DNA of 19,091 bases from Candidatus Phoenicimicrobium oleiphilum (GTDB lineage: Bacteria; Atribacterota; Phoenicimicrobiia; Phoenicimicrobiales; Phoenicimicrobiaceae). Shown here one piece after another: positions 176 to 19,091 of this stretch; position 1 is the first letter of the stretch, and every line of letters starts with the position of its first letter. The position numbers and the translations under genes were made by a program. The DNA lies in the NCBI GenBank assembly GCA_039638295.1, contig JBDIWJ010000037.1:1-19091 (forward strand), read 5' to 3'. A model generated the notes under the pieces. It worked only from the letters and a program-made list of their open reading frames with translations. It was not told where the DNA came from and made no database searches.

Positions 176-191
176 TCACCAAGCAGTTTTT

Positions 192-2589: not shown

Positions 2590-4069
2590 TTTTTTCTCTC
2601 TCCATTAATATTTTTTTCACTACTTCTTCATCATTATGATGAATTATTTTATTATGATAAATTTGCTCATTCTCAGGACCTTTCCCGGCTATCAAAACTA
2701 TATCACCCTGGTTGGCTTTTTCCAGGGCATATTTAATCGCTTTCACTCGGTCAACAATAATAACATAGTTTTTATCTGTCTTTTTCACTCCTTCTTCAAT
2801 CTCCTGAGCAATTTTTAAAGGATCTTCGCTTTTGGGGTTATCTGCAGTTATGATGACATAGTCACTGTATGTGCCTATGACTTCTCCAATGATGGCTCTT
2901 ACCTTGTTATATTTCTCTCCACCATGTCCAAATACTGTAATAATATGATGTTCGGCAAAAGTACGTAAATTCCGCAGTATATTCCCTAATCCGTGATAAT
3001 TGTGGGCAAAATCTACAATGATAGTATAATTTTGTCCAAAATCGAGTAATTTGTATCTACCTGGAGCTCCGTTAAATTTACTCAAAGCCTTAGAAATTTT
3101 CTCAAGAGAAATACCTTGAGTAATAGCCACTGCTATAGCAGCTAAAGCATTATATATGTTATATTTTCCGCTAAAATTTAAAAATATTTTAACTTTGCCT
3201 GAAGGGGTTTCCGCAATAAACGAAGAATTTTGTAAGTTAATTTCTATGTTTGTTGCTCTAACCTCTGCTCTTTCTTTTATACCATAGGTAATTAAATTAA
3301 CTCTATTGCAATCAATAAATTCCTGACTATGTTCTTCATCAATATTAATTACTGCAAACTTCTTTGAATCTTCTTTACTGCTGTCATTTAAATGTAAGAA
3401 TAATTTTTTCTTCGCTTCTAAATAATTAGTAAAGTTTTTATGAATTTCAAAATGTTCATTACTGATATTAGTAAAAATAGCCACATCAAAGTCGCATCCT
3501 ACTATTCGAGATAGCGCTAACGCATGAGAAGATACTTCCATTACTGCATACTCATTCTTTTGCTCAACCATTTCTTTAAGGCTTTTTTGTAGGTCAATTG
3601 ATTCCATAGTAGTCATATAAGAGGTATTAATATTATCACCAATTATGTTTTGAGCTGTACTTAACAATCCGGTTTTATACCCTGCTTCACAAAAAATAGC
3701 CCTTAACATATAAGCTATTGTAGTTTTACCGTTTGTGCCAGTAACTCCAATTAATTTTAGTTTTCGGGAAGGAAATCCATAAAACTGATTAGCCAAAAGA
3801 GATAAGGCCCGACGAGTGTCAGCTACTTTTATAATAGTAATGTCTGGCCGTGGTGGACAAACTTCTTGTTCTACCACTAAAGCAATAGCACCTTTATTAA
3901 CAGCTTCATCAATAAAGCAATGTCCATCAAAAACAAAACCTTTTATACATACAAATAAATAACCTCTCGTTACCTTTCGAGAGTTATGACTAATTCCTTT
4001 TATATCTAAATTTAAATCACCATTAATTTCTTTAATCTCTAAACTGCTGATTAATTCACTCAGCTTCAT
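2576..4069 (-). CDS. murE: MurE-family UDP-MurNAc-dipeptide--amino acid ligase with divergent specificity motifs (497 aa from the ATG at 4069)
   Basis: P-loop GVTGTNGKTT, MEVSSHAL, PGR, DFAH, DNPK and AGKG motifs, in the dcw position between ftsI and murF. The ATG at 4069 (MKLSELI) has an AGAGG RBS at 4081-4085 and is preferred over the ORF-track start at 4165, which runs through repeats. Confidence 0.93.
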   Translation of the reverse strand: MKLSELISSLEIKEINGDLNLDIKGISHNSRKVTRGYLFVCIKGFVFDGHCFIDEAVNKGAIALVVEQEVCPPRPDITIIKVADTRRALSLLANQFYGFPSRKLKLIGVTGTNGKTTIAYMLRAIFCEAGYKTGLLSTAQNIIGDNINTSYMTTMESIDLQKSLKEMVEQKNEYAVMEVSSHALALSRIVGCDFDVAIFTNISNEHFEIHKNFTNYLEAKKKLFLHLNDSSKEDSKKFAVINIDEEHSQEFIDCNRVNLITYGIKERAEVRATNIEINLQNSSFIAETPSGKVKIFLNFSGKYNIYNALAAIAVAITQGISLEKISKALSKFNGAPGRYKLLDFGQNYTIIVDFAHNYHGLGNILRNLRTFAEHHIITVFGHGGEKYNKVRAIIGEVIGTYSDYVIITADNPKSEDPLKIAQEIEEGVKKTDKNYVIIVDRVKAIKYALEKANQGDIVLIAGKGPENEQIYHNKIIHHNDEEVVKKILMEREKIGRA

Positions 4070-4397
4070 AGAATAAATTACCTCTAATTTTTTATATAGT
4101 ATATCGTATTGCGTATTGCGTTTCAATTTAAAACTTAAACCGAAAAGCGAAAAATCATAAATCAAAATTCAAAACCTATTAAATCTTTTAATTTACCGGT
4201 TATCCGGTTACTACTGACTTTTATCCTTTATTTTCTTAACTAGTGCTCTGATAAGTCAGGTAACTAACTAATCAACTAATGATGTAATGTATAACATATA
4301 ATAAGTAGTGGGTAATAGGTACCTGTTTTTATAATTTCAGAAATCTAATCTTATTACTCATTACATATTACTTGTTACTTTATTTTACACGAGATAC
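4070..4397. repeat. Long ftsI-murE spacer made of short periodic repeats
   Basis: CGTATTG at 4105 and 4112 (partial at 4119). RTAR at 4284, 4291, 4298, 4305 and 4312 faces TTAC at 4354, 4361, 4368 and 4375 (period 7, inverted arms). aggtaactaactaa at 4258-4271 is identical to 142-155. Confidence 0.7.
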
Positions 4398-6083
4398 TCA
4401 CTGATTGGGAGGAATTGATAAATAAGGAAGAACCTTGGATGCAATTTCTTGAAAAACTGGAGCTGCGACTATTCCCCCGTAATAGCTACCTTGAGGCTCA
4501 TCTAATAAAACCAGAATAGCTATTTGTGGATTCTCAACAGGAGCATAACCTACAAATAGAGCACTATATTTGTTTTTAGAATATTTTCCGGTGGAAAAAT
4601 CAAATTTTTGGGCAGTTCCAGTTTTGCCCGCTACTCTATACCCGGTAATTTTAGCACCTTTACCAGTTCCATCAATTACAACTTGTTCTAATATTTTAGT
4701 CATAGTTAAGGCTGTTTCAGCAGATACCACCTGCCTTATGGGTTTTGGCTTAAATACTTTAACTCTATTTTGTTTAGAATCTACAATTTCTTTGACTATC
4801 ATTGGTTTCATTAGTGTCCCTCTATTGGCAATAGCAGAAATAGCCATTATTAATTGAATCGGTGTTACAGCAATTTCCTGGCCTATAGATAAAGATGCTA
4901 ATGAAATTTTTGACCAATCTTTTGTACTTCTCACCAGGCCACCTACTTCCCCTGGTAAGTTTATCTCGGTAAGTGACCCGAAACCAAATCTTCTTATCGA
5001 TTTCTCAAAAACTTTTTCTTCTAATCTAGTTCCAACTTGAATAACTCCGATGTTACAGGAATTCTTCACTATACCGATAAGGTCTTGTGAACCATGTTGG
5101 TGTATATCATGAAAAATATTCCCATTATATTTTATCCATCCCTTACAATAGAACTCATCATCTAATTTTACTACTCCCTCTTCTAAAGCAGTGGCTATAG
5201 TGATTACTTTAAAAGTTGAACCAGGTTCGTAGATATCAGTAATTGCCCTGTTTCTCCATATACCTTGAGAAAATCTATCAAAATAATTGGGGTCATAAGA
5301 AGGCCTTACGGCTATAGCTAATATTTCACCAGTTTTAGGCATTATTACAATTGCAACGCCAGTTTTCGCTTTATATTGGCAAAAAGCTTTATCCAGGGCT
5401 TCTTCAGTAATATATTGTATTACCTCATCAATTGTTAAAACAATCGAATTACCATCTTGATAATTTGTAAGCCTCTTAATACTAAGAGGAATTTTACCTC
5501 CAGAGGCATCTTTCTCTAAAATTGCTAAACCGGGTAAACCCTTTAATTCCTTATCAAAAAATAATTCCAATCCCTCCAATCCCTGGTTATCAATTCCTAC
5601 AAAACCTAATAGATTAGAAGCCAGGTTTTTTTTAGGATAATACCTTTTATTTTCGTCCAGAAAATCCAGGCCCGGCAAATTTAATTTTTTTACTTCTTCG
5701 ACTTCTATATCATTTAATTTCCTTTTTATCCAGGTAAAAGAATTTTTTTGGTTTAATTTATTAAATACTTCTCGTGTTTCCAAACTTAAAACAGAAGAAA
5801 GTAGTTGGGCAGTTTTATGAGGTTCTTGTATCTGATGGGGAATAGCAAATAAAGATTTGGTATTAACGTTTACCGCTAATTTTTTTAAATTTCTATCGTA
5901 GATATTACCTCGCTCTCCTTCAATAGAAAACGAAGTTAGATGTTCTTGCTGAGCAAGTTCTTTATATTTATTACTTTGAATAATCTGGATGTTGTATAAT
6001 CTATAAATTAATAAAAAATAAAAAATAATAGACAATATAAATAATAAAGTAATCCGTTCTTTCTTTTCTTTGACCAGCAACAA
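4398..6083 (-). CDS. ftsI: Class B penicillin-binding protein (FtsI/SpoVD-like transpeptidase), no PASTA domain
   Basis: N-terminal TM helix, RGxIYDRN and RYYP pedestal motifs, and catalytic motifs SxxK (EPGSTFK), SxN (SCN) and KTG (KTGTAQK). TTG start with an AGGTGG RBS; dcw position. Confidence 0.93.
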   Translation of the reverse strand: MLLVKEKKERITLLFILSIIFYFLLIYRLYNIQIIQSNKYKELAQQEHLTSFSIEGERGNIYDRNLKKLAVNVNTKSLFAIPHQIQEPHKTAQLLSSVLSLETREVFNKLNQKNSFTWIKRKLNDIEVEEVKKLNLPGLDFLDENKRYYPKKNLASNLLGFVGIDNQGLEGLELFFDKELKGLPGLAILEKDASGGKIPLSIKRLTNYQDGNSIVLTIDEVIQYITEEALDKAFCQYKAKTGVAIVIMPKTGEILAIAVRPSYDPNYFDRFSQGIWRNRAITDIYEPGSTFKVITIATALEEGVVKLDDEFYCKGWIKYNGNIFHDIHQHGSQDLIGIVKNSCNIGVIQVGTRLEEKVFEKSIRRFGFGSLTEINLPGEVGGLVRSTKDWSKISLASLSIGQEIAVTPIQLIMAISAIANRGTLMKPMIVKEIVDSKQNRVKVFKPKPIRQVVSAETALTMTKILEQVVIDGTGKGAKITGYRVAGKTGTAQKFDFSTGKYSKNKYSALFVGYAPVENPQIAILVLLDEPQGSYYGGIVAAPVFQEIASKVLPYLSIPPNQ

Positions 6084-6119
6084 CTATTCCCACCTTTTGT
6101 TCTCATTGCTACAAGTATA

Positions 6120-6572
6120 TTATTTTAGCACAGATAAAATCAATTCGTTTACTTTTTTTAAGTCAAAACTAGCCCAAAAATATTTTTCTCCTTCATAATT
6201 GTTGCTAATTACCTCTATATTTCCCCCTGGATTAATTTTTGAAGCAGGAAGTGAAGCAATGAAATTAACTTCTTTGGGTCTTATCATTCCTAAGTGGTTA
6301 CAGGCAATTTCTTCAACTCTATCCAGGGAAGAAAGAGTCTCTACCATAAGCTCAAGTTTTTTGTTCTCTTCTACTAATTTTATTTTGTAATTTTCTAATT
6401 CTATTAATTTATACCCTAATTCCGTTAGAGCGATGGTGTTAGAAATATAAAAAACAGTTATAGAGGTGATAAAAAACATTAATAGTAAAAATAATCCACA
6501 ACTAAAAAATATATTTTTATCATTACAATAATTATTATTATATTTTACTTCTTTTCTTCTTTTTCTTGCCAT
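6120..6572 (-). CDS. ftsL: Cell division protein FtsL-like (bitopic, coiled coil)
   Basis: Basic N-terminus, one TM helix, coiled coil ending LSSLDRVEEIAxxxLGM. Lies between rsmH and ftsI. Confidence 0.8.
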   Translation of the reverse strand: MARKRRKEVKYNNNYCNDKNIFFSCGLFLLLMFFITSITVFYISNTIALTELGYKLIELENYKIKLVEENKKLELMVETLSSLDRVEEIACNHLGMIRPKEVNFIASLPASKINPGGNIEVISNNYEGEKYFWASFDLKKVNELILSVLK

Positions 6573-6692
6573 CTTCTCGTCCCTTTATTATATTTAGGGT
6601 TTTTGCTATACAATCTTGCAAAAATCCATTCCTTTTTTAAACTTGTACCCGGGAAACATGTGCTCGTGAAAACGAGTAACGGGCAAAAGAAT

Positions 6693-7640
6693 TTACCTTT
6701 TAGCATTGGAATTTTTCAAAATTTCGACTTTTTCTGCCACTCTCAATTTAGCGCTTCTGGCTCCAGGATTTCTTTTTATCTCCTCTTGAGAGGCTCTAAT
6801 CGGCTTTTTGGTTATAATTTTTAATCCATAATTCTGTTGTGCTATTTTTTCTTTTTCCGCTTTTTTAAAGACATTTTTGACAATCCTATCTTCTAATGAA
6901 TGATAGGAAATTACGCAAATTCTGCCTTTGTCTTCTAAAACCTTAATCGCTTGATTTAAACTTTTTTCCAAAACATCAAGTTCTTGATTTACCTCTATTC
7001 TTATTGCCTGAAAAACTCTGGTAGCTGGATGGATTCTCCATCTTCCTCTCTTTTTAGCTTTTGGAAGAGCTCTTATAACCAGATCAGCTAATTGTTTGGT
7101 AGTATTTATAGGATTCCTCTGTCGCTCTAAAACAATCAGTCGGGCAATTCTTTTTGAAAAGCGTTCTTCTCCATATTTTTCAAATATTCTGATTAGTTCT
7201 TCCTCTGTATAATTATTAATCAATGTACTTGCATTAAACTTTTGGGTTAGGTCCATCCGCATATCTAAATGACCATCTTCTCTAAAGCTAAATCCTCTTT
7301 CCCTCTCTCTTAGTTGGTGAGAGGACACTCCTAAATCAAATAGTATTCCCGATACTGCGTTCACCTTTAGGTCGGATATAATTTCTTCTAAATTTTTAAA
7401 ATTTTCTTTAACCAATATAGCTCTATCAAGATAATTGTTTAACTCTTTTCTTGCTGTTTTAATTGCCTCTATATCCTGATCTATACCAATCAATAAGCCA
7501 TCAGGATATATTCTTTTTAAAATAGCTTTTGAGTGCCCCCCACCTCCTAAGGTACAATCAATATATACACCACCTCCCTTTTTGGAAATTAAGTAGTGTA
7601 AAACCTCTTTTAAGAGTACGGGTATATGAAAAGAATTCAT
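6693..7640 (-). CDS. rsmH: 16S rRNA m4C1402 methyltransferase RsmH (MraW)
   Basis: HIPVLL, DCTLGGGGHS, DLGVSS, LDMRMD, HPATRVFQAIRIEVNQEL, ISYHSLEDRIVK and ARSAKLR motifs. Confidence 0.98.
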   Translation of the reverse strand: MNSFHIPVLLKEVLHYLISKKGGGVYIDCTLGGGGHSKAILKRIYPDGLLIGIDQDIEAIKTARKELNNYLDRAILVKENFKNLEEIISDLKVNAVSGILFDLGVSSHQLRERERGFSFREDGHLDMRMDLTQKFNASTLINNYTEEELIRIFEKYGEERFSKRIARLIVLERQRNPINTTKQLADLVIRALPKAKKRGRWRIHPATRVFQAIRIEVNQELDVLEKSLNQAIKVLEDKGRICVISYHSLEDRIVKNVFKKAEKEKIAQQNYGLKIITKKPIRASQEEIKRNPGARSAKLRVAEKVEILKNSNAKR

Positions 7641-7646
7641 TATAAA

Positions 7647-8078
7647 TTAACCTTCTTGCTCATATAGCCTTTCAGCAATATCTTCATATGAGCCTTCAAT
7701 TTCTTTAAAGTATCCTTGCCAGACATCCTTACTCCAGATCTCCAATCTATCTAAAACCCCGATAACCATAACTTCTCGTTTGATTTGCGCATAATCTCTT
7801 AAGTATTTCATAATGACAACTCTACCTTGACTATCTAATGAACAAGTGGTTGCTCGAGAAAAAAGTATTCTTTTAAATGCTCGGGCATCTCTTTGACCTA
7901 AGGGAAGTAATTTTAATTTTTCGGATAGACTTTTCCATTCTTCAAGGGGATATACAAAAAGGCATACATCAAGACCAAAAGTGATTATAAAATTATCCCC
8001 CAAAGATTCTCGATATCTTGCCGGCACAATTAATCTTCCCTTTTCATCAACTGTATGTTCATATTGCCCTAAAAACAT
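7647..8078 (-). CDS. mraZ: Division/cell wall cluster transcriptional repressor MraZ
   Basis: 143 aa with MFLGQY, two DxxGR motifs (DEKGR, DSQGR) and EIW. First gene of the dcw cluster; AAAGGGGG RBS upstream. Confidence 0.98.
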   Translation of the reverse strand: MFLGQYEHTVDEKGRLIVPARYRESLGDNFIITFGLDVCLFVYPLEEWKSLSEKLKLLPLGQRDARAFKRILFSRATTCSLDSQGRVVIMKYLRDYAQIKREVMVIGVLDRLEIWSKDVWQGYFKEIEGSYEDIAERLYEQEG

Positions 8079-8099
8079 AAATCCCCCTTTTAATTAATA

Positions 8100-8125
8100 C
8101 TCCACTTTGCTCCACTTTGCTCCAC
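8100..8125 (-). promoter_or_regulatory. MraZ-binding repeats: three GTGGAG hexamers at 10-bp period
   Basis: ctccac at 8100, 8110 and 8120 reads GTGGAG on the minus strand directly upstream of mraZ, matching known GTGG(A/T)G MraZ operators. A TATACT -10-like hexamer lies at 8139-8144 (minus). Confidence 0.9.
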
Positions 8126-8350
8126 TTCGTTTATATTCAGTATACTACATTTTTTTTAAAAATCCTCTTTTTTTAAAAAAATATTTTTATTTTTTTTAAA
8201 AAAAATTAATAAATACCACATATTTAGTGTGTCTTCAACAATATATACATAAATACATAACTCTTATTTTTTAATTTTGAGGAAATTAGAATAGAAATTT
8301 TAAAATTAATTTTTTAGAGGCATATTGTTGGAGAAGAAGCTGGGAAAGAT

Positions 8351-8405
8351 AAAAGAAGAAGAGACATATATTAGAATCTTCCAATTATATGTCTCTTCTT
8401 CTTTT
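8351..8405 (-). terminator. Long inverted repeat downstream of rnpB, likely an intrinsic (possibly bidirectional) terminator
   Basis: Perfect 20-bp inverted repeat aaaagaagaagagacatata (8351-8370) / tatatgtctcttcttctttt (8386-8405), just 3' of rnpB. Confidence 0.8.
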
Positions 8406-8420
8406 CTTTATTATTCTATT

Positions 8421-8880
8421 CTTATAAGTAGACCATAAGCCGAGTTCTGTTCCCTTATAAGTTAGTTGTTAGTGAATAGTCGTTAGTCGTTAGTGTAAAA
8501 TACAAGTTGCAAGATGCGAATTTAACCATCTAACCAAGTAACTAACTAATAAGGGTGGTAATCATCTATCTGGGATGTAAGTTACCTTACACCTCTTGCG
8601 ACCTACCCGAAGATTCAGCGGGCCACCACAACTCTTCCTATTTGGTCTTGCTCCAAGTGGGGTTTACTAAGCTTGTTAGTCACCTAACAACTGGTAGGCT
8701 CTTACCCTGCCTTTTCACCTTTACCCAGCGCACAAATTTGATTGCCGGGCTGTGTATTTTCTGTAGCACTTTCCTTGAGGTCACCCTCACTGGGGGTTAC
8801 CCAGCACTTTGCCCTGCGGAGCTCGGACTTTCCTCGAAAGAAATTATTCTTCTTCCGCGATTACCTGGTCTACTTATAAG
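8421..8880 (-). ncRNA. rnpB: RNase P RNA (bacterial type A) with expanded P19
   Basis: The minus strand has GAGGAAAGTCCGAGCTC near the 5' end and ACAGAACTCGGCTTA near the 3' end. P1 is a 15-bp inverted repeat (8421-8435 / 8866-8880), P2 is ggtaatc/gattacc, and P9, P14 and P18 are GNRA-capped. Mature ends are uncertain by a few nt. Confidence 0.97.
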
Positions 8881-8893
8881 CTATCCATTTTTA

Positions 8894-8922
8894 AAGATAT
8901 CATCTTACCTTAAAAAAGTCAA
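8894..8922 (-). promoter_or_regulatory. Sigma70-type promoter of rnpB
   Basis: TTGACT (8922-8917), 17-bp spacer, then TATCTT (8899-8894) with an extended -10 TG, about 14 nt upstream of P1. Confidence 0.75.
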
Positions 8923-8932
8923 TTGATTTGAA

Positions 8933-9646
8933 TTACCCTTTCCAAACCAGAATTCTATTACAATTAGGGCAAGTCGTCACTATTTGTTCCTTTTTTAGGT
9001 GATAGATAGTATCACTGGGGAGATCGAGATAACAACCTGGACATATAGAGCTATTAACCTCAATAATGGCTTTTCCATCTTTTTCTTTTCTCAATAATTC
9101 ATACTCCTTAAGAAGATGATTATCTGTTATTTTACTTAATATCCCTTTTCTTCTATCATAAAAAGAATTTATTTTCTCGTCTATCTTTGAGACTGTTAAT
9201 TTTATTTCTTGCTGGCAATCTTGTAAATGCCTTTCTTTCTTTTTTAAATCCTCTTCAAGTTCCATAATCAATTTATCGTTTTCTTCTACCTTTTCCATCA
9301 GGTCTAACAGCTCATCTTCAATCAAAGCTTTTTCTTCTTCATAGTTTGCTATTGCTCCTTGCAACTGTTTAAGTTCTTTAATATCTGTTATCTTACCCCC
9401 ATATAAATCTTCCTGATGTTTTTTAATTTTATTAGATTTGTCAGATAAATCTAATTCTTTTCTGTTCAAATTGATCTGTAATTCTTTATAAGCTTTCTTT
9501 GCGGCTACAAGATTATTTTGTAATTCCTGAATTTCCCCAGCAATTTTATTTAATTTCAAGGGTAATTCTCTTTTTTTCTTTTCTTCCTCATCTATATCAT
9601 TATCTATTCTTTGCAGTTCTAAAAGTATTTCCAATTGTTTCTTCAA
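8933..9646 (-). CDS. Coiled-coil protein with C-terminal C4 zinc ribbon (COG1579/DUF164, CT398/HP0958-like)
   Basis: LxxLQxID N-terminus, long coiled coil, CPGC...CPNCNRIL. TTG start with a GGAGG RBS. Adjacency to rnpB is a common arrangement. Confidence 0.9.
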   Translation of the reverse strand: MKKQLEILLELQRIDNDIDEEEKKKRELPLKLNKIAGEIQELQNNLVAAKKAYKELQINLNRKELDLSDKSNKIKKHQEDLYGGKITDIKELKQLQGAIANYEEEKALIEDELLDLMEKVEENDKLIMELEEDLKKKERHLQDCQQEIKLTVSKIDEKINSFYDRRKGILSKITDNHLLKEYELLRKEKDGKAIIEVNSSICPGCYLDLPSDTIYHLKKEQIVTTCPNCNRILVWKG

Positions 9647-9693
9647 ATAACTATTCCTCCCCCGCCCTTATTAGCAATATCTTAATTTAAAAT

Positions 9694-9733
9694 AAAAAAA
9701 ACCTTACTTCTTACAGGGAAGAAGTAAGGTTTT
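9694..9733 (-). terminator. Intrinsic terminator downstream of the tRNA gene
   Basis: Inverted repeat aaaaccttacttctt (9698-9712) / aagaagtaaggtttt (9719-9733) followed by a U-run on the minus strand. Confidence 0.8.
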
Positions 9734-9797
9734 AAAAAAATGTAATATCTTTTTTATTTCATACTTTCTCATATAATTTTACAACCTTTGTTAGTAT

Positions 9798-9873
9798 TGG
9801 TGGGCCCACCTGGATTCGAACCAGGGACCGACCGGTTATGAGCCGGTTGCTCTACCAGCTGAGCTATGGGCCC
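9798..9873 (-). tRNA. tRNA with CAT anticodon, most likely tRNA-Ile2 (lysidine-modified, reads AUA)
   Basis: 76-nt cloverleaf GGGCCCATAGCTCAG...CTCATAA...GGTTCGAATCC...GGGCCCACCA with encoded CCA. G1-C72 is paired and the anticodon stem lacks three consecutive G-C pairs, so it is not an initiator. The sequence resembles Ile2 more than elongator Met. Confidence 0.9.
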
Positions 9874-9899
9874 GTAATCGAGTAATTATCTTCGTTAAA

Positions 9900-9927
9900 A
9901 GTATAACAGATATACTTAGAAAGTCAA
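9900..9927 (-). promoter_or_regulatory. Sigma70-type promoter of the tRNA gene
   Basis: TTGACT (9927-9922), 16-bp spacer, then TATACT (9905-9900) with an extended -10 TG. A 16-bp spacer is common in stable-RNA promoters. Confidence 0.8.
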
Positions 9928-9970
9928 GAAAATTTTCGTATTGCGTAAAGAGAAATTAATATTTGTAAAC

Positions 9971-11002
9971 TTATTTTAGATGCAGGCTTTTTAGTTGTCC
10001 ACAAGCAGCAGATATATCACCCCCCCTGGATACTCTTATAGTAGTAGGAATTTTTTTAGCTACCAATTTTTCCCTAAAGGATTTAATTTGAGAGATATCA
10101 GTCGCCTGCAACAAAGAACCGGGAGCAGGATTAAAAGTAATTAGATTTATCTTGAAATTAAACCCTCCGATTAGTTTAGCTAATTTATCAGCATAATTAA
10201 GAGAATCATTTATTCCTTTAATTAAAATATATTCGAAAGTAATCTGCCTATTTGTTTTTTTTACATAATCTCTGCATACTTCTATTAAATCATATAAAGG
10301 ATATTTATTATTAACTGGCATTAAATAAGACCTTAATTTATCTTCGGGGGCATGAAGAGATACTGATAATTCTACCTGCCAGTTACACTCTTGCAACTTT
10401 TTTATTGCGGGTATTATCCCACAGGTAGAAATAGTTATCTTTCTTGCTCCAATATTAAAGGCTTCTTTAGAATTTAATATGTAAATTGCTTTTATGACAT
10501 TATCATAATTATCTAAAGGTTCTCCAATCCCCATAAATACAATATTGTGAGGATTAGATTTCAACTTCTTCTTAATAAATAAAACCTGATTTAAAATTTC
10601 ACTAACCAGGAGGTTTCTGGTAAATCCTTTCTTACCACTTTCACAAAATAAGCAATTATATTTACATCCGACTTGAGAGGAAATACATTCAGTGATCCTC
10701 CCTTTATTAGAAAATATCAGAACACTTTCTATTACATTCCCATCTTCTAATTTGAACAGGTATTTTTCAGTTCCGTCTTTAGATTTTACAAATTTTAATA
10801 ACCCTATATTCCGTAGATAAAAGTTGTAGTGAAGAAATTTTCTAAATGCTACGGGAAGATCGGTCATATCATCAAAATTTTCTATACATTTTTTATAAAC
10901 CCAATGAAATAGTTGGGTAGCCCTAAATCTTTTTTCTCCTGAATTTTCAAATTCTTCTTTTAATTCATCTAAAGTAAAATTTTTAATATCTTTCTTCTTC
11001 AT
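9971..11002 (-). CDS. rlmN: Dual-specificity 23S rRNA m2A2503 / tRNA m2A37 radical SAM methyltransferase
   Basis: FRATQLFHW, DGTEKYLF, CISSQVGC-x3-C-x2-C, MGIGEPL, SLHA, FEY and AACGQL motifs. Confidence 0.95.
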   Translation of the reverse strand: MKKKDIKNFTLDELKEEFENSGEKRFRATQLFHWVYKKCIENFDDMTDLPVAFRKFLHYNFYLRNIGLLKFVKSKDGTEKYLFKLEDGNVIESVLIFSNKGRITECISSQVGCKYNCLFCESGKKGFTRNLLVSEILNQVLFIKKKLKSNPHNIVFMGIGEPLDNYDNVIKAIYILNSKEAFNIGARKITISTCGIIPAIKKLQECNWQVELSVSLHAPEDKLRSYLMPVNNKYPLYDLIEVCRDYVKKTNRQITFEYILIKGINDSLNYADKLAKLIGGFNFKINLITFNPAPGSLLQATDISQIKSFREKLVAKKIPTTIRVSRGGDISAACGQLKSLHLK

Positions 11003-11016
11003 AGATTTATTTTCTT

Positions 11017-12066
11017 CTATTTTTTAATTTCTCCCAATATATTTCGGGCAAACTCTTCTGCCCTTTTTTCTATCCCTTTAACTTTCCTGATTGCACCCGG
11101 GTCATTAGCAATGGCCATCAAGGCAAAATAGGGAGGCAATCTAAATCCTTTATTAATATTTAAAGCCCCTAATAATTGCTCGGCTACACAATCACTACCT
11201 GAATTTCCTGAAACAATGATGGAAAACAGACTTTTATCCCAGAATCTCACTCTCTTGTAAAGTACAGTCAACCTATTTATTACTGCCATAAGCTTTGCAG
11301 ATACAGCATCATTATAATTAGGGCATAACCAGATTGTACAATCTGCATCCTCAATCGCAGGAAGAATTTCTTTTACCATTATTCCTCCATAAAAACAACT
11401 TTCTTCTTCGCTATAATGAATACAGGTTTTATAAGAACATCCCCTGCAGTCTACTACGGTACCATTTTCTACATGTAATTCCCTTAAATTTTTTGCTCTC
11501 AAATTATCCTTAACCATCCTCCAGAGCATCAGAGTATTGGAAGTTTTAAATGAACTGGAATGAAGGACTAATATTTTGGGATTTTTAATTAAAGTAAGCT
11601 TTTCCGCCATCAATTTATCAACTAATTCTTTAGCTTGTTTTTGATAAATTTCTTTAAGGGATAAATCATAAATTTTTTGCCAGGTAATAAAATTGCTGAG
11701 ATTATAAGTTGCCTCTACAACTGGGTGGCCTGGGAATCTACACCCCATCAGATTGGCCAAAAAAATTATCTTCTGAGCAGAATTCTTAGTAAATAACTCA
11801 CTGGGGCTTTGAATTATAATTACTGCCCTTGAACCAAGAAGAGAATCATTTCCTCTTTTTTGCAATTTTAAAAGTATTTCAAATAAAGGAATATTAAATC
11901 CACATCCATCTAACTCTATAGCAAAAACTATCTTCTTATTTCTTAAGTCCGTGATATCTTCAAATGTTTTAATAACTATCTGATTATAACCCGCTGTAGC
12001 TTTTTTAATTATATCGCTAAAACTATTTGATATTTTTCCTGGCATTATTAAATAAATAGTGTCCAT
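11017..12066 (-). CDS. Double-length flavodoxin-fold protein with a C-terminal iron-sulfur flavoprotein / NADPH-FMN reductase-like domain
   Basis: The C-terminal half has SSSFKTSNT (FMN phosphate loop-like), C207-x2-C-x4-C-x8-C224 and PNYNDAVSAKLMAVINR. The N-terminal half looks like a degenerate flavodoxin fold. Confidence 0.8.
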   Translation of the reverse strand: MDTIYLIMPGKISNSFSDIIKKATAGYNQIVIKTFEDITDLRNKKIVFAIELDGCGFNIPLFEILLKLQKRGNDSLLGSRAVIIIQSPSELFTKNSAQKIIFLANLMGCRFPGHPVVEATYNLSNFITWQKIYDLSLKEIYQKQAKELVDKLMAEKLTLIKNPKILVLHSSSFKTSNTLMLWRMVKDNLRAKNLRELHVENGTVVDCRGCSYKTCIHYSEEESCFYGGIMVKEILPAIEDADCTIWLCPNYNDAVSAKLMAVINRLTVLYKRVRFWDKSLFSIIVSGNSGSDCVAEQLLGALNINKGFRLPPYFALMAIANDPGAIRKVKGIEKRAEEFARNILGEIKK

Positions 12067-12123
12067 ATAATAATTCCCTTACCCACTTTTACGGGCACAA
12101 GTTTCTTTTTAAATTTTTAACTA

Positions 12124-13368
12124 TTATAAAATATTGCCTAACTCTTTATAACTCTTCTTTATTTTTTCAAATAAAACATCCGGCATATCCAATCTTTCAA
12201 CTTCAATTCCAGAATTATGCAATCTGTTTTTTGCTCCCATATATACTCCTCCCATAAAGGTTGCACTGTAATGCCACTTCCCTCTGATAGTGGCAATAAG
12301 CGGTAAACAGGCTGAAGATAAGGCAGGAGCAATATAAGGTTTATAGCCAGTCTTTCTTATTTCTAAATTTGCTTTTAGGGTCTGATTGGTAAGCATCTCA
12401 GAAAGTTTTTCATCGTACTTTTTTATACTATTTGCAATTATTAAACCTTTGCCATGAGGGCCAAATGCTCTACCTTCCTGGCAATAGTTAACAGTTTCAG
12501 GATTTTGCTTAGAATAATATATTGCTCGGGCATGCATAACCCCCAAACCATATCCCCTTATCTGTTCTGCCGCTAATCCCTTAAAATCAAATTTTCCATT
12601 TTTATTTTTATTACTGACTAAAAAAGCATATTTACACAATAAATCTACCGGGTCCGAAATCACTGCAAATATTCCCTTAAATGATTTTTCCCGAGCCTTT
12701 TCAGCATAATCAGAAATTATTTTAGAGTTTCCTTCAAATTGAGTCATTCTTACATCCTTTGCCTCTTCACCTACTGGAGGGACACCTACTGTGGCGCAAA
12801 AAACAAACAAATCACAATCAAAAATCTCTTTTTCCTTCAAAGCATATACTTCAGGATGTAACTGAACTGCAGAGGGAGCAAATATCTGGTTTGCTTCTAA
12901 TTCCCATCTTTTTACAAGTTTGGTATTTTTATCATATATTCCGATACTCTTGATATACTTTCCACCTAATAATCTTAATCCAGCAAGAAGAGTTCCTCCT
13001 ACATCTCCTAGTCCTACAATATTAATCTTCCAACAAACAGGAAATTGATAAGTTATTACATCTTGCCAATCAGGATATTCAGTATTAAGCGAACTTACTC
13101 TTTTTTCTTTTATTCTTTCTTTAAGCCATAAAGGCAAATTATAATCAATCTTCCTAGATTTTTGCAGTAAATGAATTCCCTCTTCTTTTAAAAAGATAAG
13201 AGAGGAATCGGTAACACTAAAACTTCTTCTTGATTTTAAAGGGTTTATCCGGGTAAGGGCATAGATTATACCTTTACTTTCTTTTGCTTCGCTTTCAGAT
13301 ATTCTATTTAATTCATTGTATTCCGATTGGGAAATTAGTATCTTATCTTTTAGTTTATAGTAGAACAT
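12124..13368 (-). CDS. Atypical lactate/malate dehydrogenase-fold NAD-binding protein with an N-terminal extension of about 110 aa
   Basis: INIVGLGDVGG Rossmann motif, IYD, R207, SDPVD (cf. SNPVD), MHAR (cf. DSAR) and GPHG (cf. GEHG). Confidence 0.8.
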   Translation of the reverse strand: MFYYKLKDKILISQSEYNELNRISESEAKESKGIIYALTRINPLKSRRSFSVTDSSLIFLKEEGIHLLQKSRKIDYNLPLWLKERIKEKRVSSLNTEYPDWQDVITYQFPVCWKINIVGLGDVGGTLLAGLRLLGGKYIKSIGIYDKNTKLVKRWELEANQIFAPSAVQLHPEVYALKEKEIFDCDLFVFCATVGVPPVGEEAKDVRMTQFEGNSKIISDYAEKAREKSFKGIFAVISDPVDLLCKYAFLVSNKNKNGKFDFKGLAAEQIRGYGLGVMHARAIYYSKQNPETVNYCQEGRAFGPHGKGLIIANSIKKYDEKLSEMLTNQTLKANLEIRKTGYKPYIAPALSSACLPLIATIRGKWHYSATFMGGVYMGAKNRLHNSGIEVERLDMPDVLFEKIKKSYKELGNIL

Positions 13369-13429
13369 CTTTTATTTTCCTCTCTTCACCTAAACTCTCT
13401 CCTGTGATTGTGCCCTCTAATATTATTAC

Positions 13430-16400
13430 TTAATTTCTCCTATCTACCATTTCTTCCATTCGTTCTAAAAGCTCAAGATCATTTCTTAAATAATGAGAGG
13501 GACTAAGATTTAAATTATACTCCATATTTTCTCCCTGATCAGGATAGCGAGGATAAATAATTACTTCCCCTAAATGATTAAGAGTTAACTTTCTTTGTTG
13601 AATTGATTGATATTCATCTTCAAGGGCTTCTAAAATAGTCAAGGCACTTTCCATACAAACCTTTGAAAAGTTATAAATAATTTTTCCGGAAACATTTTTT
13701 ATAAATGAAGGGAAGGTATAGGGCAAGATTAAATTAATAGATCGAACCAAATTCCCTTGAGACCTGCTCTTTCGCTTTATTGCATCTCCACCAATAAAAG
13801 GATATAATTCACTTTCGTTAAACCATAATCTGAGATTAGGAATAAAATGAACAGAGTCAACATCTCTATTTAAAAGGGAAGCAATTTCTTTTCCACTTCC
13901 AGACAATGCTCCCAAAATTATTTTTTTGATTTTGATATCATACTTTTGGAAAAGAGGTTCTAAGGTCTTTATTCTATACCCCTTATGTAGATAATCATCA
14001 ATTAGAATTACCGGCATATTAAACGAACGAATAACTTTCACCTGGTTTTCCAAACTCATATAATTAGGGAAAGCACCAATTTCAAAACTTTTCATATCAG
14101 GAGAAAATATTTTTTCAGTATGAAGAGATTTAGTTACTGTATTGGGAACCACCATTTTGTGCAGTATCTTTCCAAAGGGTACACAAATTGAATCTCCCAA
14201 AACTCGAGGAGTCAAAGGTATTGTTGGAACATTATTTAACTTGCATATTTTTTTAACAATAGTCTGATTGATTAAATTTATGTTAAACGGCAGTACAATA
14301 TTCCCAGAATAAAAGGAAGTTAATGATTTTAATAATTTTTTCCGAGATTTAATAATTGATTTTTTAATATTTGAATTTTGGTTAAAGGGTTCTTTTATTA
14401 CGCTCTCCGTTTCCAGATTAATTATGCAGGGCTTACTCATATCTACTACAAATACCGGGTTATCCTCATCACTAAAGGGTAAGCGATAAAATCCCATCAA
14501 CTCTAAATTCTCATATAGAGAATTTAAACTATAATTATTCAGAATATTCCTGAAAATTGTATAACTGTAATCTTTTTCAATGCAAAAAGAAAGGGTCTCG
14601 GTAAGAATAATCTGTTCAAGATTTTCAAGTTCTGATTTATTCTCGACTTCATTTATGGTATAAATTCCATCAATAATCATTATGCGACCAACTGCATTTT
14701 CTCTAATATACTCAGAAATTAAATTATTGTTAAACTCCTGGAAAAGAGAGCTTGAACGAACCCAATGAAAAGCTGAAAATCCTAATAATATTCCATTATG
14801 CTCAAGATCACGCAAAAGTAAAAATCTGGGATTTAATTTATGAGAAAACTCATTAAACTTTTTAAATATATCTTCCCGATTATATTGAGAAAATATTTTA
14901 TGGTAAAGTTCTTCTATTAAATCTGAGGTAATATTTTCAATTATCTGCACATCAATAGAAATCGTCTGCATTATACTCTTATATTGTGGTTCTCTTTGAT
15001 ATAAATTATTCTCATAAATATATTTTTGGACTAAAGGATCGATAAATTTGGAAATATCCCGATTTTCATCGATATTGTTTCTTATTTGGCTTGAGCTTAT
15101 CTCTTCATATCGGGGGGTAAGGTTAAGGTTAATAATCTCTTTTTCAATCTTTTTAATAGCCTCTTCAATATTCTTTTCTTTCTTATTGGTAATATTTAAG
15201 GTTCCTCTATCAAATATAATATGAGGAAAAGTATGTATAGAATTTTCTGTCTTTTCCTTTTGATAAGCAGAGGCATTTAATACTACATCACTGCCCACTA
15301 CCATATAAACTTCAGAGGAAGGAAAATTACTTCTTAAGGCTTGTAAATCATTCGGGTTGGCAATATTAACAGGCAAATCTTCAGGATATAAATATACCTT
15401 AAGTTCATCAGCAATAGAAATATTTATTATATTCTTCCTGAAAAGATGGGGTTGGGTTCTTTTAGACCAGGAAAATTCATCAACTGCTAAATATACTTCA
15501 AAACCGAGTGCCTCTATCTTCTTAACTATTTCTTTGTGGCTTAAAGAAAAAGGATCAAACGACCCCGGGAAAAAAGCTATCTTTGATGGAGCCTTAAGGT
15601 TTATACTACCTTTAAAGAAATTGTAATCTGAAATAAATTTATACATATAGTTAAGTCCATTACAGTTGCTTAAAAACATCAATCCTTCCTTACTAACTGG
15701 AGCAAGTAGGGTTAGAATTTTTTTGGCAATTAGCTGAAATATATGGTTTTTATCCTCTAAACTGAGATGTTTTGAACCAAATATTTCTCTTCCAATAACT
15801 CTAAAAGCTACTTGTTTTACTTGTAAACTGTAATGTACAAAACCATTTAGAAGAATGCCTATCATTTTATTAAGTTTATTTTCGTATGATTTTCTACTTT
15901 CTTGAAATCTTTCTTTATATTTTGGATAATTAGCAATAGCTATCCCAATAGTTCTAAGTAATAAGGAACTTAATTTGGGATCTGATTGTTTTATCTTCTC
16001 AATTAAATCATCAATTAGCTCCTCTAACTCATCAGGAGGGAGAAAAATTATTAATTGACCTAAATAATAAGGGATATATTTGGTAAATTGATAATCTTCC
16101 ATCTCTAAAGCCCTCAATAGCTCAATGGCAATATCATTTCGTTGTTCAAATGATAGACTGGGCATCAAATTCACCAGGGTCTGTCCGGCTAAATTTCTAA
16201 TACTTTCCACGCCACTCACTTTTAAGATATTACAAAAATGTAAAGCGGTGTAGATTTCTTCTTGCTTAGTCTTTAATGTATGTTCTAACAAAAGTTCTAT
16301 TTGTATTTTTTTAACTATCCAGCTCGTTGAAGTTTTGAGATTACTTAAAAATATATACTGTATTTTTTCCAGGTCTTTCTGATAAAATTCTCTATATTCT

Positions 16401-18355
16401 TCTATAATTTTGCTGTCTAAGTCTAATAATTCAACTATCTTCATCTTCAAAAAATTTTCTGCTGGAATTGTTGAAGCTGAAACATTATCAGTAAATATTT
16501 CTTTCAAAGGATTCAGGATTTTTGATTTTTTACTAAGCCGGGATATTAAACTCAAGGTTGTCTCCAGAGCTAAAAGTCTCAAATTAATATTTTCCTTTTT
16601 TAACATTTCTATAACATAATTAAATAGCCTCTGTGAAGATTTTTTATCAGAAGATATGGGGATATATTTAGCTGTTTTTATTAAACATAATTGAACATCT
16701 TCATTAACATATAAATCCTTTTTGTAATGTCTTAATATAATTTTTCTATAATGACTGGCCTGATTATCTCGACTGTTTGCAAAAAGAGAAGAAATCATTA
16801 TATCAGTACTATTTATGATTCGATATTGGTGAAGGGGGATTTTTTTGTGGTCTGGCTGTAAAAAATACTTTAAGTATTTATTCAATAAATCATAACTGGT
16901 AATAGCTGGAGGTTCAAGATTAACGTCCAGGGGAATCTCCTTGCGATAATCTTCATCAAAGGTAGCAATTAATCTACCGATAAGTTTTGCACTTCTTCTC
17001 CTTATTTCATCTTCAGGATGAGTTAATTGTTCATATAAATATCGCAAGGTAATCATTTTCTGTCTTTGGGTTAAGTAAGTGGAATATTCATTAAATATTT
17101 GTAAATATTCTCGTAGATTGTTCCAATCTTTTTCACTTCGAGCTAACTCCAACAGTGAATTTAGAGAAGATTCGTTTCGTAGTTCATGCATTAAGTGTAT
17201 ATTGTGTTCTATAGAAAGAAATTTTATATTTTGTATAACTTCCTGGCTATGCATAAGTGAATAATAAGGATTTCTTCTTTTCTCAGGTAGATATATATCT
17301 TTATGCTCTAAATCAACATTTACTCCTAAATTTATCATATAATTTTCAAAATCCTTTAATTTTGCATATACTCGGCCATATCTTCTCCTTTTTCTTTCAT
17401 CAACATTATCCAGTTTGCTCAAAATTATTTGAAAAGAATCTTTAAGAGTAAAAATCTTCATCTTCTCTGTATTAGAATTACTATTTTCGTTTTTTACCCG
17501 AAAGTCAGAATAGATTAAAATAAGAGATTCCAGGGGTAAATTTTCTAATTCTAAATCCCAAACGGAATGGTTAACCGCAATATGTCCGATATAAGGAATA
17601 TTATGCTTTTTAAACCACATATCAGTATAGTAATAATGTAGATAAGGCGTTCTCTTAATCTCAATATTTTTACATCCATATTTCCCTATATCGTGTCCCG
17701 CTGCCGCCCCTGAAACTCTCGCTAAATCAACTGGAAGACCCCTACTATATAATTGTCGACCAATAAATAAGGCAATCCAATTAACCCCACATATATGGTC
17801 AAGGGTATTATAATTTAAAACTTCCTGACTCAGTTTCATCATCTCATAGAGGTATTCATCGTTAAATGCCTTTACAAATCTTTTATATTCAGCAGGATTT
17901 TCTAATTTAGCTTTTTCTTCAGCAGTTAGAAAATTTAGGGGGTATTTACTTTGAAAAGTAGAATCATCAGAAGATTTTTGGAACTCTGAAATCACTCTTA
18001 AAACTTCTAAATAAAACAAGAAAGTCTTACGACAATCAACAGAGATATTCTCAAAAGAAAGTTCTACTGCATCAGGGAAAGATTTAGATAGAGCAAATTG
18101 ATATACTTTATAAAGCCAATTATGGGAATTATGTTTCTTATCGATTGTAGCAAGTATACTCTGACATAAAGCATATACCGCCTGGCAGCTATAATCTTTA
18201 TTTTCTACTATATACAATAATTTATTCGAAAACTCAGGGCTTTCGATATATTTTTTGGCAAACTCTTTCTCTGAAGAAGTAATATCCAATATATCTGGAT
18301 TCATAAACCTTTTTGATATTTCTTTAGATAAATCTTCAACCAGAGATTTAATCAT
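13430..18355 (-). CDS. 1641-aa multidomain protein: HD domain, HEAT-like helical region, NadD-like nucleotidyltransferase, GNAT-like region, type I PRTase-like domain
   Basis: H187...H221-D222...D284; GSFDPFSLSH, GSD, ISSSQIR and YIYENNLY (aa about 925-1119); VILIDDYLHKG (aa 1449-1459). Uninterrupted ORF with an AGAGG RBS. Confidence 0.85.
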   Translation of the reverse strand: MIKSLVEDLSKEISKRFMNPDILDITSSEKEFAKKYIESPEFSNKLLYIVENKDYSCQAVYALCQSILATIDKKHNSHNWLYKVYQFALSKSFPDAVELSFENISVDCRKTFLFYLEVLRVISEFQKSSDDSTFQSKYPLNFLTAEEKAKLENPAEYKRFVKAFNDEYLYEMMKLSQEVLNYNTLDHICGVNWIALFIGRQLYSRGLPVDLARVSGAAAGHDIGKYGCKNIEIKRTPYLHYYYTDMWFKKHNIPYIGHIAVNHSVWDLELENLPLESLILIYSDFRVKNENSNSNTEKMKIFTLKDSFQIILSKLDNVDERKRRRYGRVYAKLKDFENYMINLGVNVDLEHKDIYLPEKRRNPYYSLMHSQEVIQNIKFLSIEHNIHLMHELRNESSLNSLLELARSEKDWNNLREYLQIFNEYSTYLTQRQKMITLRYLYEQLTHPEDEIRRRSAKLIGRLIATFDEDYRKEIPLDVNLEPPAITSYDLLNKYLKYFLQPDHKKIPLHQYRIINSTDIMISSLFANSRDNQASHYRKIILRHYKKDLYVNEDVQLCLIKTAKYIPISSDKKSSQRLFNYVIEMLKKENINLRLLALETTLSLISRLSKKSKILNPLKEIFTDNVSASTIPAENFLKMKIVELLDLDSKIIEEYREFYQKDLEKIQYIFLSNLKTSTSWIVKKIQIELLLEHTLKTKQEEIYTALHFCNILKVSGVESIRNLAGQTLVNLMPSLSFEQRNDIAIELLRALEMEDYQFTKYIPYYLGQLIIFLPPDELEELIDDLIEKIKQSDPKLSSLLLRTIGIAIANYPKYKERFQESRKSYENKLNKMIGILLNGFVHYSLQVKQVAFRVIGREIFGSKHLSLEDKNHIFQLIAKKILTLLAPVSKEGLMFLSNCNGLNYMYKFISDYNFFKGSINLKAPSKIAFFPGSFDPFSLSHKEIVKKIEALGFEVYLAVDEFSWSKRTQPHLFRKNIINISIADELKVYLYPEDLPVNIANPNDLQALRSNFPSSEVYMVVGSDVVLNASAYQKEKTENSIHTFPHIIFDRGTLNITNKKEKNIEEAIKKIEKEIINLNLTPRYEEISSSQIRNNIDENRDISKFIDPLVQKYIYENNLYQREPQYKSIMQTISIDVQIIENITSDLIEELYHKIFSQYNREDIFKKFNEFSHKLNPRFLLLRDLEHNGILLGFSAFHWVRSSSLFQEFNNNLISEYIRENAVGRIMIIDGIYTINEVENKSELENLEQIILTETLSFCIEKDYSYTIFRNILNNYSLNSLYENLELMGFYRLPFSDEDNPVFVVDMSKPCIINLETESVIKEPFNQNSNIKKSIIKSRKKLLKSLTSFYSGNIVLPFNINLINQTIVKKICKLNNVPTIPLTPRVLGDSICVPFGKILHKMVVPNTVTKSLHTEKIFSPDMKSFEIGAFPNYMSLENQVKVIRSFNMPVILIDDYLHKGYRIKTLEPLFQKYDIKIKKIILGALSGSGKEIASLLNRDVDSVHFIPNLRLWFNESELYPFIGGDAIKRKSRSQGNLVRSINLILPYTFPSFIKNVSGKIIYNFSKVCMESALTILEALEDEYQSIQQRKLTLNHLGEVIIYPRYPDQGENMEYNLNLSPSHYLRNDLELLERMEEMVDRRN

Positions 18356-18502
18356 TATAAGAACCTCTATCTTTTTATATTTAAAATTGTATTTTTAAAA
18401 TATTATCTTTCTAATTTATATTATAACTAAAAATCATTAAATTTTACAATGTAGTTATATCTTCTATAATTATAACCCAAAGGTAAACAAAATGTTAATT
18501 TA

Positions 18503-18572
18503 GTAGCTCTACATATCATAATGGTAGCTCTTTTATATATCATAATTGTAGGGGCACGATGTATCGTGCCCC
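18503..18572 (+). repeat. GTAG-footed REP-like palindrome preceded by two imperfect tandem copies of a GTAG-starting unit
   Basis: GTAG at 18548, then ggggcacgat-gt-atcgtgcccc (18551-18572). gtagctct...atatcataat occurs at 18503-18522 and 18524-18546. Confidence 0.65.
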
Positions 18573-18697
18573 CAGAGTGGGCTGTGCATAAAAAAATAAG
18601 GGCGCAATTCAATGTACCATATACAAAACTTGTTGAAAATACTTTTGGCTTTTTGAAGAATAATTATCTATATATAGATAACAAGAAAATCTTCTTA

Positions 18698-18743
18698 AAA
18701 ATACTAAAGGGCACTACACTATTAGGTTATATTGTGCCCTTTA
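18698..18743 (-). terminator. Probable terminator downstream of the nifU-like gene
   Basis: Inverted repeat taaagggcac (18705-18714) / gtgcccttta (18734-18743), followed on the minus strand by gtattttt. Confidence 0.55.
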
Positions 18744-18773
18744 ATATCTTAATATTTATTTATTGAATGGTAA

Positions 18774-18995
18774 TTATACTGCTACAACTTCCTTTATTTC
18801 AGGAATTTCTTTCTTTAGTGCCCTACCAATACCCATCTGTAGAGTCATCTGCCTCATTGGACAACCCGCACAGGAACCAGTAAGTTTCAATTTAACTATT
18901 CCATCAGAAGTAACTTCCACTAATTCAACATCTCCACCATCTGCTTGCAGAGATGGTCTTATCTTCTCTAACGCAGCTTCTACTCTTTTTTGCAT
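18774..18995 (-). CDS. NifU C-terminal/Nfu-type Fe-S cluster carrier (single domain)
   Basis: IRPSLQADGGDVEL...L-x-G-S-C-A-G-C-P (CxxC) with a strong AGGAGG RBS. Confidence 0.95.
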   Translation of the reverse strand: MQKRVEAALEKIRPSLQADGGDVELVEVTSDGIVKLKLTGSCAGCPMRQMTLQMGIGRALKKEIPEIKEVVAV

Positions 18996-19091
18996 TTCTT
19001 CCTCCTAATATAAATTATTGATTACCTAAATTAATATTATTAAAATCAGGTATCTCTCTTTTTATTGAAATAATGTTAGCACATTTTCTAT

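Follow-up and report, generated by a model that had tools for sequence, protein, structure and literature searches.

What is the work of a single bacterial protein in which a hydrolase, a nucleotidyltransferase, and several apparent binding folds share one chain? The question is raised by a 19,091-nucleotide stretch of Candidatus Phoenicimicrobium oleiphilum DNA (contig JBDIWJ010000037.1 of assembly GCA_039638295.1, positions 1 to 19,091), hereafter called the window. A giant gene on its minus strand (13430..18355) encodes 1641 residues consisting of N-terminal helices, an HD domain, a HEAT region, a NadD-like nucleotidyltransferase (NTase), a GNAT-like domain, and a phosphoribosyltransferase (PRTase)-like domain. 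This five-module protein is real, widespread in anaerobes, and uncharacterised. Our leading explanation, to which we give somewhat less than even chances, is that it is a regulated synthase/hydrolase switch for a dinucleotide, RelA/SpoT-like in logic. A role in making and degrading an unusual dinucleotide had been suggested in a preliminary description of the locus and is kept here as the leading idea.

The reading frame has no internal stops. A 9294-base contig from a public run corresponds to positions 9844-19091 with zero differences; that run is possibly from the source sample, so the agreement is not independent. When modelled as two halves by AlphaFold2, the protein gave a predicted local distance difference test score of 89 and predicted template modelling scores (pTM) of 0.87 and 0.86. 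Every motif listed in the preliminary description was found at its place in the translated frame: H187 at nt 17795-17797, H221-D222 at nt 17690-17695, D284 at nt 17504-17506, the NadD-like residues 925-1119 at nt 14999-15583, and VILIDDYLHKG at nt 13979-14011. Its five modules were likewise confirmed, the PRTase-like one by profile support, and its expectation of uncharacterised homologues in anaerobes agrees with a survey that recovered 5954 clusters at E<=1e-10 among 8000 scored. The description was incomplete in that two operon partners and an accessory kinase had been missed.

The active sites of the two catalytic domains are both invariant in 56/56 non-redundant homologues. The HD phosphohydrolase domain (residues 151-350, 17306..17905, minus strand) is the predicted breaker. 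Its metal-binding set, earlier given as H187, H221-D222, and D284, is extended by the equally invariant H240 and H263 to a six-ligand site. Pfam HD (PF01966) is matched by 37/43 members (best E 5.7e-8), and structure matches include 3i7a (Z 10.0) and the YqeK-related 2o08 (Z 9.4), the latter not above other HD proteins. The YqeK profile TIGR00488 is matched by only 1/43 members (E 0.066) and the genome carries its own nadD-yqeK pair, and thus the YqeK connection proposed for this domain was not upheld. The nearest profile is instead the HD part of the DVU_1551 NTP-transferase family (NCBIfam NF045665), matched by 43/43 members with a best E of 2.4e-7. The predicted maker is the NadD-fold, HIGH-type NTase (residues 920-1128, 14972..15598, minus strand), which carries the motifs PGxFDPFSLxH, DEFSWSK, GSDV, and ISSxxIR. 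The complete NadD-like fold noticed earlier is borne out by the structure search, in which residues 923-1121 match 5llt with Z 18.6 and a root mean square deviation (rmsd) of 2.3 A over 182 residues; CoaD follows with Z 13.8. The HIGH motif reads S-L-[SG]-H, and the score of 51.9 bits does not reach the curated NadD cut-off of 112.45 (TIGR00482).

A make-and-destroy role is likely because some relatives split the two modules between two gene copies. Variants were surveyed by a profile search of 50%-identity representatives, of which the best 150 of 493 matches were examined. The search was seeded with the PRTase-like domain, so the presence of that domain in every class is partly by selection. 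In a sample of 201 genomes of the order holding Acidaminobacter, the giant gene is present in 125, and an HD-seeded search likewise returned 125 genomes, 124 of them shared with the PRTase-seeded result (the family and order names of sampled genomes follow the record titles of the seed loci and general taxonomy). The 141 non-redundant sequences fall into 97 with both sites, nine with HD only, nine with NTase only (two of which, P0194 and P0263, look like fragments), 17 with neither, and nine intermediates. Forms that have lost an active site fall on several tree branches, and the short forms appear natural because cluster members of identical length sit on contigs of 28-178 kb.

At the genome level, all four genomes of the 201-genome sample that have an HD-less or HD-degenerate copy also hold a second copy with an intact HD site. 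Maker-only and breaker-only copies occur together in a first lineage represented by G871 (L191 and L192), G912 (L194 and L195), and G977 (L193 and the partial L218). A second split lineage is represented by G948 (L220/L221 and L219/L222), in which the halves lie on separate contigs and were paired by best match. Its syntenic relative G985 holds an intact copy and an HD-only copy, which is the expected intermediate, as do G826 and G887; G985 was considered as a split and not counted, since its L189 sequence has an intact HD site. Conservation follows the retained activity. In pairs with an HD-only copy (n=8) the HD domain is best kept, at 58-83% identity versus 28-65% for the NTase, and in pairs with an HD-less or HD-eroded copy (n=4) the NTase is best kept, at 49-80%. 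Counted as independent events, the HD site was lost ∼2 times, the NTase site no fewer than four times, and both together once.

The partner genes follow one of the two halves. The giant gene heads a conserved operon, in which a gene for a protein of lactate/malate dehydrogenase (LDH/MDH) fold (414 aa, 12124..13368, minus strand) follows after 61 bases and one for a two-domain flavodoxin/iron-sulfur (Fe-S)-flavoprotein-like protein (349 aa, 11017..12066, minus strand) after another 57. From 178 loci, 155 were scored; 13 were dropped at contig ends and 10 had no alignable NTase, including L192 and L195, in which the NTase is eroded and no LDH-like gene is present. The LDH-like gene lies in the fetched locus of 127/138 NTase-intact and 12/12 HD-less copies and of 1/17 NTase-dead copies. 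The redox partners therefore belong to the transferase and not to the hydrolase, and this co-retention places the LDH-like and Fe-S flavoprotein genes in the making arm.

It is established that NadD/CoaD-type enzymes transfer AMP to the phosphate group of a small molecule, and that His-rich HD domains hydrolyse phosphate or pyrophosphate bonds. In the proposed switch, the NadD-like domain would use ATP to attach AMP to some phosphorylated small molecule that is not the ordinary NAD precursor of the cell, and the resulting dinucleotide would be hydrolysed by the HD domain. Ligand binding by the PRTase-like, GNAT-like, and HEAT parts would decide between the two activities. The redox partners, LDH-like protein and Fe-S flavoprotein, may prepare the acceptor or act on the product via NAD(H)- and flavin-dependent chemistry, and an APH-fold kinase, encoded beside many copies that lack the partners, would be a second way to phosphorylate the same kind of substrate. 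The domains, the intact active-site motifs, the operon, co-retention, the paralogue splits, and selection are observed; the reactions, their opposition, and the sensor role are inferred. A wider picture is possible but doubtful: an undescribed nucleotide second-messenger system in amino-acid-fermenting anaerobes, in which the giant protein makes and destroys a new dinucleotide, perhaps an AMP conjugate of a phosphorylated 2-hydroxy or 2-oxo acid or similar compound, for which the two redox partner genes or the dedicated kinase would be the source. Such a protein would use its dead PRTase and GNAT folds to gauge the status of phosphoribosyl pyrophosphate (PRPP) or nucleotides and of acyl-CoA, couple it to glutamate/nitrogen metabolism, and have repeatedly given rise to RelA-like and SpoT-like paralogues, with one clade reduced to a pure sensor.

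The three putative regulatory parts differ in how well their folds are supported. The HEAT-type solenoid (residues 365-915, 15611..17263, minus strand) had been described as a helical region with HEAT-like units, and a structure search of residues ∼390-912 agrees, with Z up to 13.2 against PP2A-A/importin-type chains; as these are helical repeats, the fold evidence is moderate. Its residues N672, K682, H706, N709, E745, K878, and K879 are retained in most copies of every variant class. The stretch once called weakly GNAT-like (residues ∼1132-1308, 14432..14962, minus strand) is a true GNAT fold, with Z 13.8 and an rmsd of 2.8 A over 147 residues. The usual acetyl-CoA motif of GNAT acetyltransferases, [RQ]xxGx[GA], was found in 0/270 aligned GNAT segments, and the domain is likely non-catalytic. 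The type I PRTase-like domain with its C-terminal helices (residues 1311-1641, 13433..14425, minus strand) is likely a ligand sensor. PF00156 is matched by 21/32 members (best E 0.00096), an APRT-type NCBIfam model by 38/43 (best E 1.1e-5), and 21/30 weak PDB sequence matches are type I PRTase-fold proteins; the ESM Atlas returned the family's own clusters and one cluster with PF00156 on 14% of members. The window's own protein alone gave no match to the PRTase models that score other members, and the structure-search lists were filled by NadD and GNAT matches and did not reach the C-terminal domain. The PRTase fold is thus supported by profiles and the predicted strand and helix order, not by a structure match. 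In the PRPP loop (DD-x-x-H-K-G-Y-R, nt 13979-14011), D1453 is retained in 267/270 and D1454 in 256/270 sequences, the second Asp being T, N, or other in 14/270. The T/S-G-x-T/S loop is absent: where the solved PRTases aligned with it mostly carry T/S, K is found in 213/270 and R in 251/270. The type I PRTase named in the preliminary description stands as a fold supported by profiles, with phosphate-binding loop residues that differ.

Evidence on the part played by these domains comes from a clade that has lost both active sites. In eight genomes of the Sedimentibacter family (G527-G534; L117, L119, L121, and L123-L127), the NTase is dead in the copy that occupies the ancestral locus, and the HD site is also degenerate in the seven full-length dead copies. 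Five of these genomes have the dead copy alone (HD degenerate in the four full-length ones), and both partner genes are absent genome-wide; in the other three, another cassette that is intact lies at a different place. The dead gene nevertheless remains open, up to 1611 aa, and under purifying selection, with a nonsynonymous to synonymous rate ratio (dN/dS) of 0.10-0.45 versus 0.05-0.14 in intact relatives. Relaxation is greatest in the HD and NTase domains (mean identity 47% and 52%) and least in the GNAT and PRTase-like domains (72% and 67%), which are the most constrained parts in most pairs of the clade. This holds for the GNAT domain although it is poorly conserved across the family. Because the gene stays under purifying selection, the GNAT and PRTase-like parts do a job independent of both active sites, as would be expected of a sensor or binding module. 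Across the family, the HEAT, PRTase-like, and C-terminal residue set is retained in most copies of every variant class. The double-dead protein is likely a pure sensor or scaffold form. The nucleotide-sensing scaffold that the preliminary description offered as its alternative therefore fits this clade but not most members, whose two active sites are invariant.

Several observations weigh against a make-and-break switch. Subfunctionalisation would also be expected if the HD domain only proofreads or has an unrelated substrate. HD loss is seen on ∼2 lineages, the genome-level split on two, and the double-dead state on one; the counts overstate independence, since the loci were selected in search of variants and include many close relatives. 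Artefact may have grouped several of the NTase-dead branches, which are long, and most genomes have a single intact copy only. The link to the LDH-like gene has exceptions: no LDH-like gene was found in G957 and G983, although both sites are largely intact there, L225 pairs a damaged NTase with an adjoining LDH-like gene, and nine more intact copies have no adjacent LDH-like gene, of which seven are second copies and two have the gene elsewhere in the genome. Finally, the double-dead clade has lost K1458, R1461, and D1524 of the PRTase-like loop, and this could reflect a changed sensor or, equally well, a catalytic link between the PRTase-like domain and the NTase.

That last point leads to a serious rival, which we regard as possible but improbable on balance, and which develops the order of PRTase and adenylyltransferase already pointed out in the preliminary description. 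On an assembly line, a catalytic PRTase-like domain would make a ribotide from PRPP and a base or amine, the NadD-like domain would adenylylate it, the LDH-like protein and Fe-S flavoprotein would modify or use it, and the HD domain would proofread. The structure model packs the NTase, GNAT, and PRTase-like parts closely into a single unit (pTM 0.87), the loop aspartates are nearly always kept, and the altered nicotinamide/catalytic pocket of the LDH-like protein could suit an unusual cofactor. A proofreading HD domain would be dispensable, as in the HD-less copies, and according to PMC9426524, which concerns the NadD-YqeK pair and fusion of Firmicutes and mycoplasmas, a YqeK domain hydrolyses mis-made dinucleotide products of NadD. 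Yet a proofreader leaves unexplained the HD-only copies beside intact or HD-less ones, including those in all four genomes of the 201-genome sample with an HD-less copy. The earlier proposal is further weakened by the phosphate-binding loop, with K and R in place of the usual T/S and a variable second Asp, and by the constraint on the PRTase-like domain in the clade without a working NTase. The same comparison with NadD-YqeK bears on a simpler proposal, that of a second ordinary adenylyltransferase for nicotinic acid or nicotinamide mononucleotide (NaMN/NMN) that is joined to a YqeK-type hydrolase for clean-up and carries degenerate passenger domains. In its favour, the best fold match is NadD, databases name members of the family cytidyltransferase or NaMN adenylyltransferase, and both systems unite an adenylyltransferase of NadD fold with a His-rich HD hydrolase, where the HD domain may cut the dinucleotide product of the transferase. 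In the giant protein, however, the order is reversed, 570 residues of HEAT repeats lie between the two, GNAT- and PRTase-like domains are added, and the HIGH motif is altered. The score is less than half of the NadD cut-off, the HD domain is not YqeK by profile, and such an enzyme would give no reason for the strict association with a kinase gene and the two redox genes. The window's genome holds one copy of the giant gene together with separate nadD-yqeK and coaD genes, and therefore the giant is not the housekeeping NadD/YqeK; a housekeeping NadD/CoaD role was rejected for this genome. We consider a second NadD-YqeK very unlikely.

A protein rather than a small molecule could also be the target. 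In a GlnD-like writer/eraser, the NTase would nucleotidylate a protein (or a protein-bound phosphate made by the kinase), the HD domain would remove the mark, and the sensors would read nitrogen or redox state, the target being the LDH-like protein or glutamate dehydrogenase. According to PMC4285133, GlnD has a transferase, an HD domain, and sensors in one chain. The layout is shared, in that a sensed metabolite would decide between two opposed activities; a HEAT solenoid is well suited to binding a protein, and its residues persist in copies devoid of catalysis. Among genes outside the cassette, the neighbour that recurs most is NADP-glutamate dehydrogenase, found within 3 kb of the cassette in nine loci (L049, L051, L055, L058, L098, L099, L103, L111, and L115) that make up 7/73 lineage groups at 60% identity, and in L107 (12246-17443) an ammonium transporter and three split glutamate-synthase genes lie between the giant and LDH-like genes. 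On the other hand, the seven gdhA groups collapse to ∼3 clades with no matched control, no gdhA is adjacent in the window, and HIGH-fold NadD/CoaD enzymes act on small phosphorylated molecules. The GlnD transferase has another fold, and the giant protein has neither ACT domains nor a PII gene as a recurrent neighbour. We therefore regard protein modification as unlikely. The synthase/hydrolase switch stays our leading explanation, and the neighbours above are a lead toward glutamate/nitrogen metabolism.

Among known systems, the long RelA/SpoT proteins, whose paralogues specialise toward synthesis or hydrolysis (PMC9974481), resemble such a switch in logic. Both have an N-terminal HD hydrolase, a nucleotide-transferring domain, and regulatory C-terminal domains, and in both, duplication has produced maker-only and breaker-only paralogues in which the dead domain persists. 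The maker of the giant protein is a NadD (HIGH) fold and not a (p)ppGpp synthetase, so the analogy is one of working only; no match of the giant protein to RSH, GlnD, TGS, or ACT was found in Pfam/NCBIfam. The DVU_1551 family, the nearest by HD profile, is also a fusion of an NTP transferase and an HD domain, but the giant is far below its cut-off (16 bits versus 315) and matches in the HD part only. PyrR and PurR are non-catalytic type I PRTase sensors, in which the PRTase fold is reused to bind PRPP or nucleotides. The PyrR model is weakly matched by 13/43 giant members; unlike PyrR and PurR, the giant has no nucleic-acid-binding part that could be found, and its PRTase-like domain is embedded in a multi-enzyme chain. 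Known folds thus account for every part, but their combination matches no described system, and every named family used for comparison fails at a defining feature. Full-text searches found no paper on this family; subscription papers and supplements (proteomics, transposon screens), which may list members, were outside their scope.

The giant gene is near-core in several groups of anaerobic fermenters. The nearest relatives of the window's copy are in named Atribacterota (79-90% identity), followed by Clostridia (52-58% along the whole length). It occurs in 34/72 Atribacterota, all of the window's order, in 56/59 genomes of the Sedimentibacter family, and in 12/301 of a Lachnospiraceae sample, and its lineages include gut, oral, and subsurface ones; the names cytidyltransferase and NaMN adenylyltransferase given to it in databases are misnomers. 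If the protein is indeed a switch, it would provide a new nucleotide signal or cofactor in organisms of little-known metabolic regulation, and nature supplies, in the maker-only and breaker-only paralogues, the material for a direct test.

The operon partners accompany the giant gene in most loci. Among the first 59 loci and the window, the giant gene is present in 60, the LDH-like gene in 46, and the flavoprotein-like gene in 43, most gaps being contig ends; in L045 and L207 a profile search recovered both. In the class of Clostridium sp. MD294, the giant and LDH-like genes co-occur in an identical 27/399 scored genomes (two further genomes of the class were not scored). In LDH numbering, the LDH-like protein keeps the equivalents of His195, Arg171, and Arg109 (H305, R281, and R207), while Asp168 is replaced by an invariant Met278 and Asn140 by Asp239. 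It falls outside the L-lactate/malate dehydrogenases, with a broken His-Asp pair and 32 bits against a cut-off of 303. The flavoprotein-like protein matches PF03358 (E 8.8e-18) and has an invariant C207-x2-C210-x4-C215-x8-C224 motif; no solved relative of its profile was found at E<=0.01. A complex prediction of the NTase domain with the flavoprotein and the LDH-like core scored 0.00, which has no bearing either way.

The uncharacterised APH-fold kinase family (PF01636) keeps the catalytic H-x-D and DF motifs and has an N-terminal GNHxLxRH motif. It was found in 13 fetched loci of several lineages (for example L174:6198-7148, L097:12905-13840, L196:11893-12849, L188:6080-7003, and L222:276-1352), in 12/13 of which the giant copy lacks the LDH-like gene. 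In the 201-genome sample it is present in 35 genomes, all among the 125 giant-positive ones and none among the other 76 (Fisher p ∼1e-8, with kinship and genome size uncontrolled and not used as proof). The kinase was not found in the window's genome or in five other genomes tested, and it is therefore an accessory part. A clade of NTase-intact second copies without an LDH partner (L175, L177, L179, L196, L198, and L200) is located behind genes for panB and a DUF2520 reductase; four of these copies have the kinase gene in the interval. L202, L203, and L205 lie behind coaBC. These neighbourhoods are a possible CoA/pantothenate link or mere synteny. Genes for serine dehydratase, a phosphoglycerate-dehydrogenase-like protein, and NfnAB-like proteins also recur near the cassette.

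Upstream of the giant gene, a promoter-like site with 11/12 consensus letters (18469..18498, minus strand) lies ∼115 bases away; such consensus matches are equally common in shuffles. A short G+C-rich palindrome resembling the repetitive extragenic palindromic type is located in the same spacer at ∼18548-18573, with a related half-site near 18735. Beyond it, a 73-aa open reading frame (ORF) with a CxxC motif (18774-18995, minus strand) presumably encodes a NifU C-terminal domain protein. Four RNA runs contain the stretch as contigs, which is no proof of expression, since one of these runs covers genes and spacers evenly and may be DNA. In run X1, one contig joins position 9829, in a tRNA, to 14856 inside the giant gene, but one side of it spans only 21 letters, and the match is probably due to chance or to foreign sequence.

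Downstream of the cassette, profile matches place rlmN at 9971-11002 and a CT398/CdsZ-like zinc-ribbon protein at 8933-9646, both on the minus strand; rlmN follows the cassette in Atribacterota loci only. The tRNA-Met(CAT) is at 9798-9873 and a class A RNase P RNA at 8421-8876, both on the minus strand, and a 123-aa ORF (8555-8926) that overlaps the latter is probably no gene. We take 192-8078 (minus strand) to be an mraZ-rsmH-ftsL-PBP-murE-murF-mraY cluster. Outside the window, a sigma-54 activator in L045 (4676-6757) has an N-terminal part that matches L-erythro-3,5-diaminohexanoate dehydrogenase (NF052381), and similar ones lie near the giant gene in L169 and L207.

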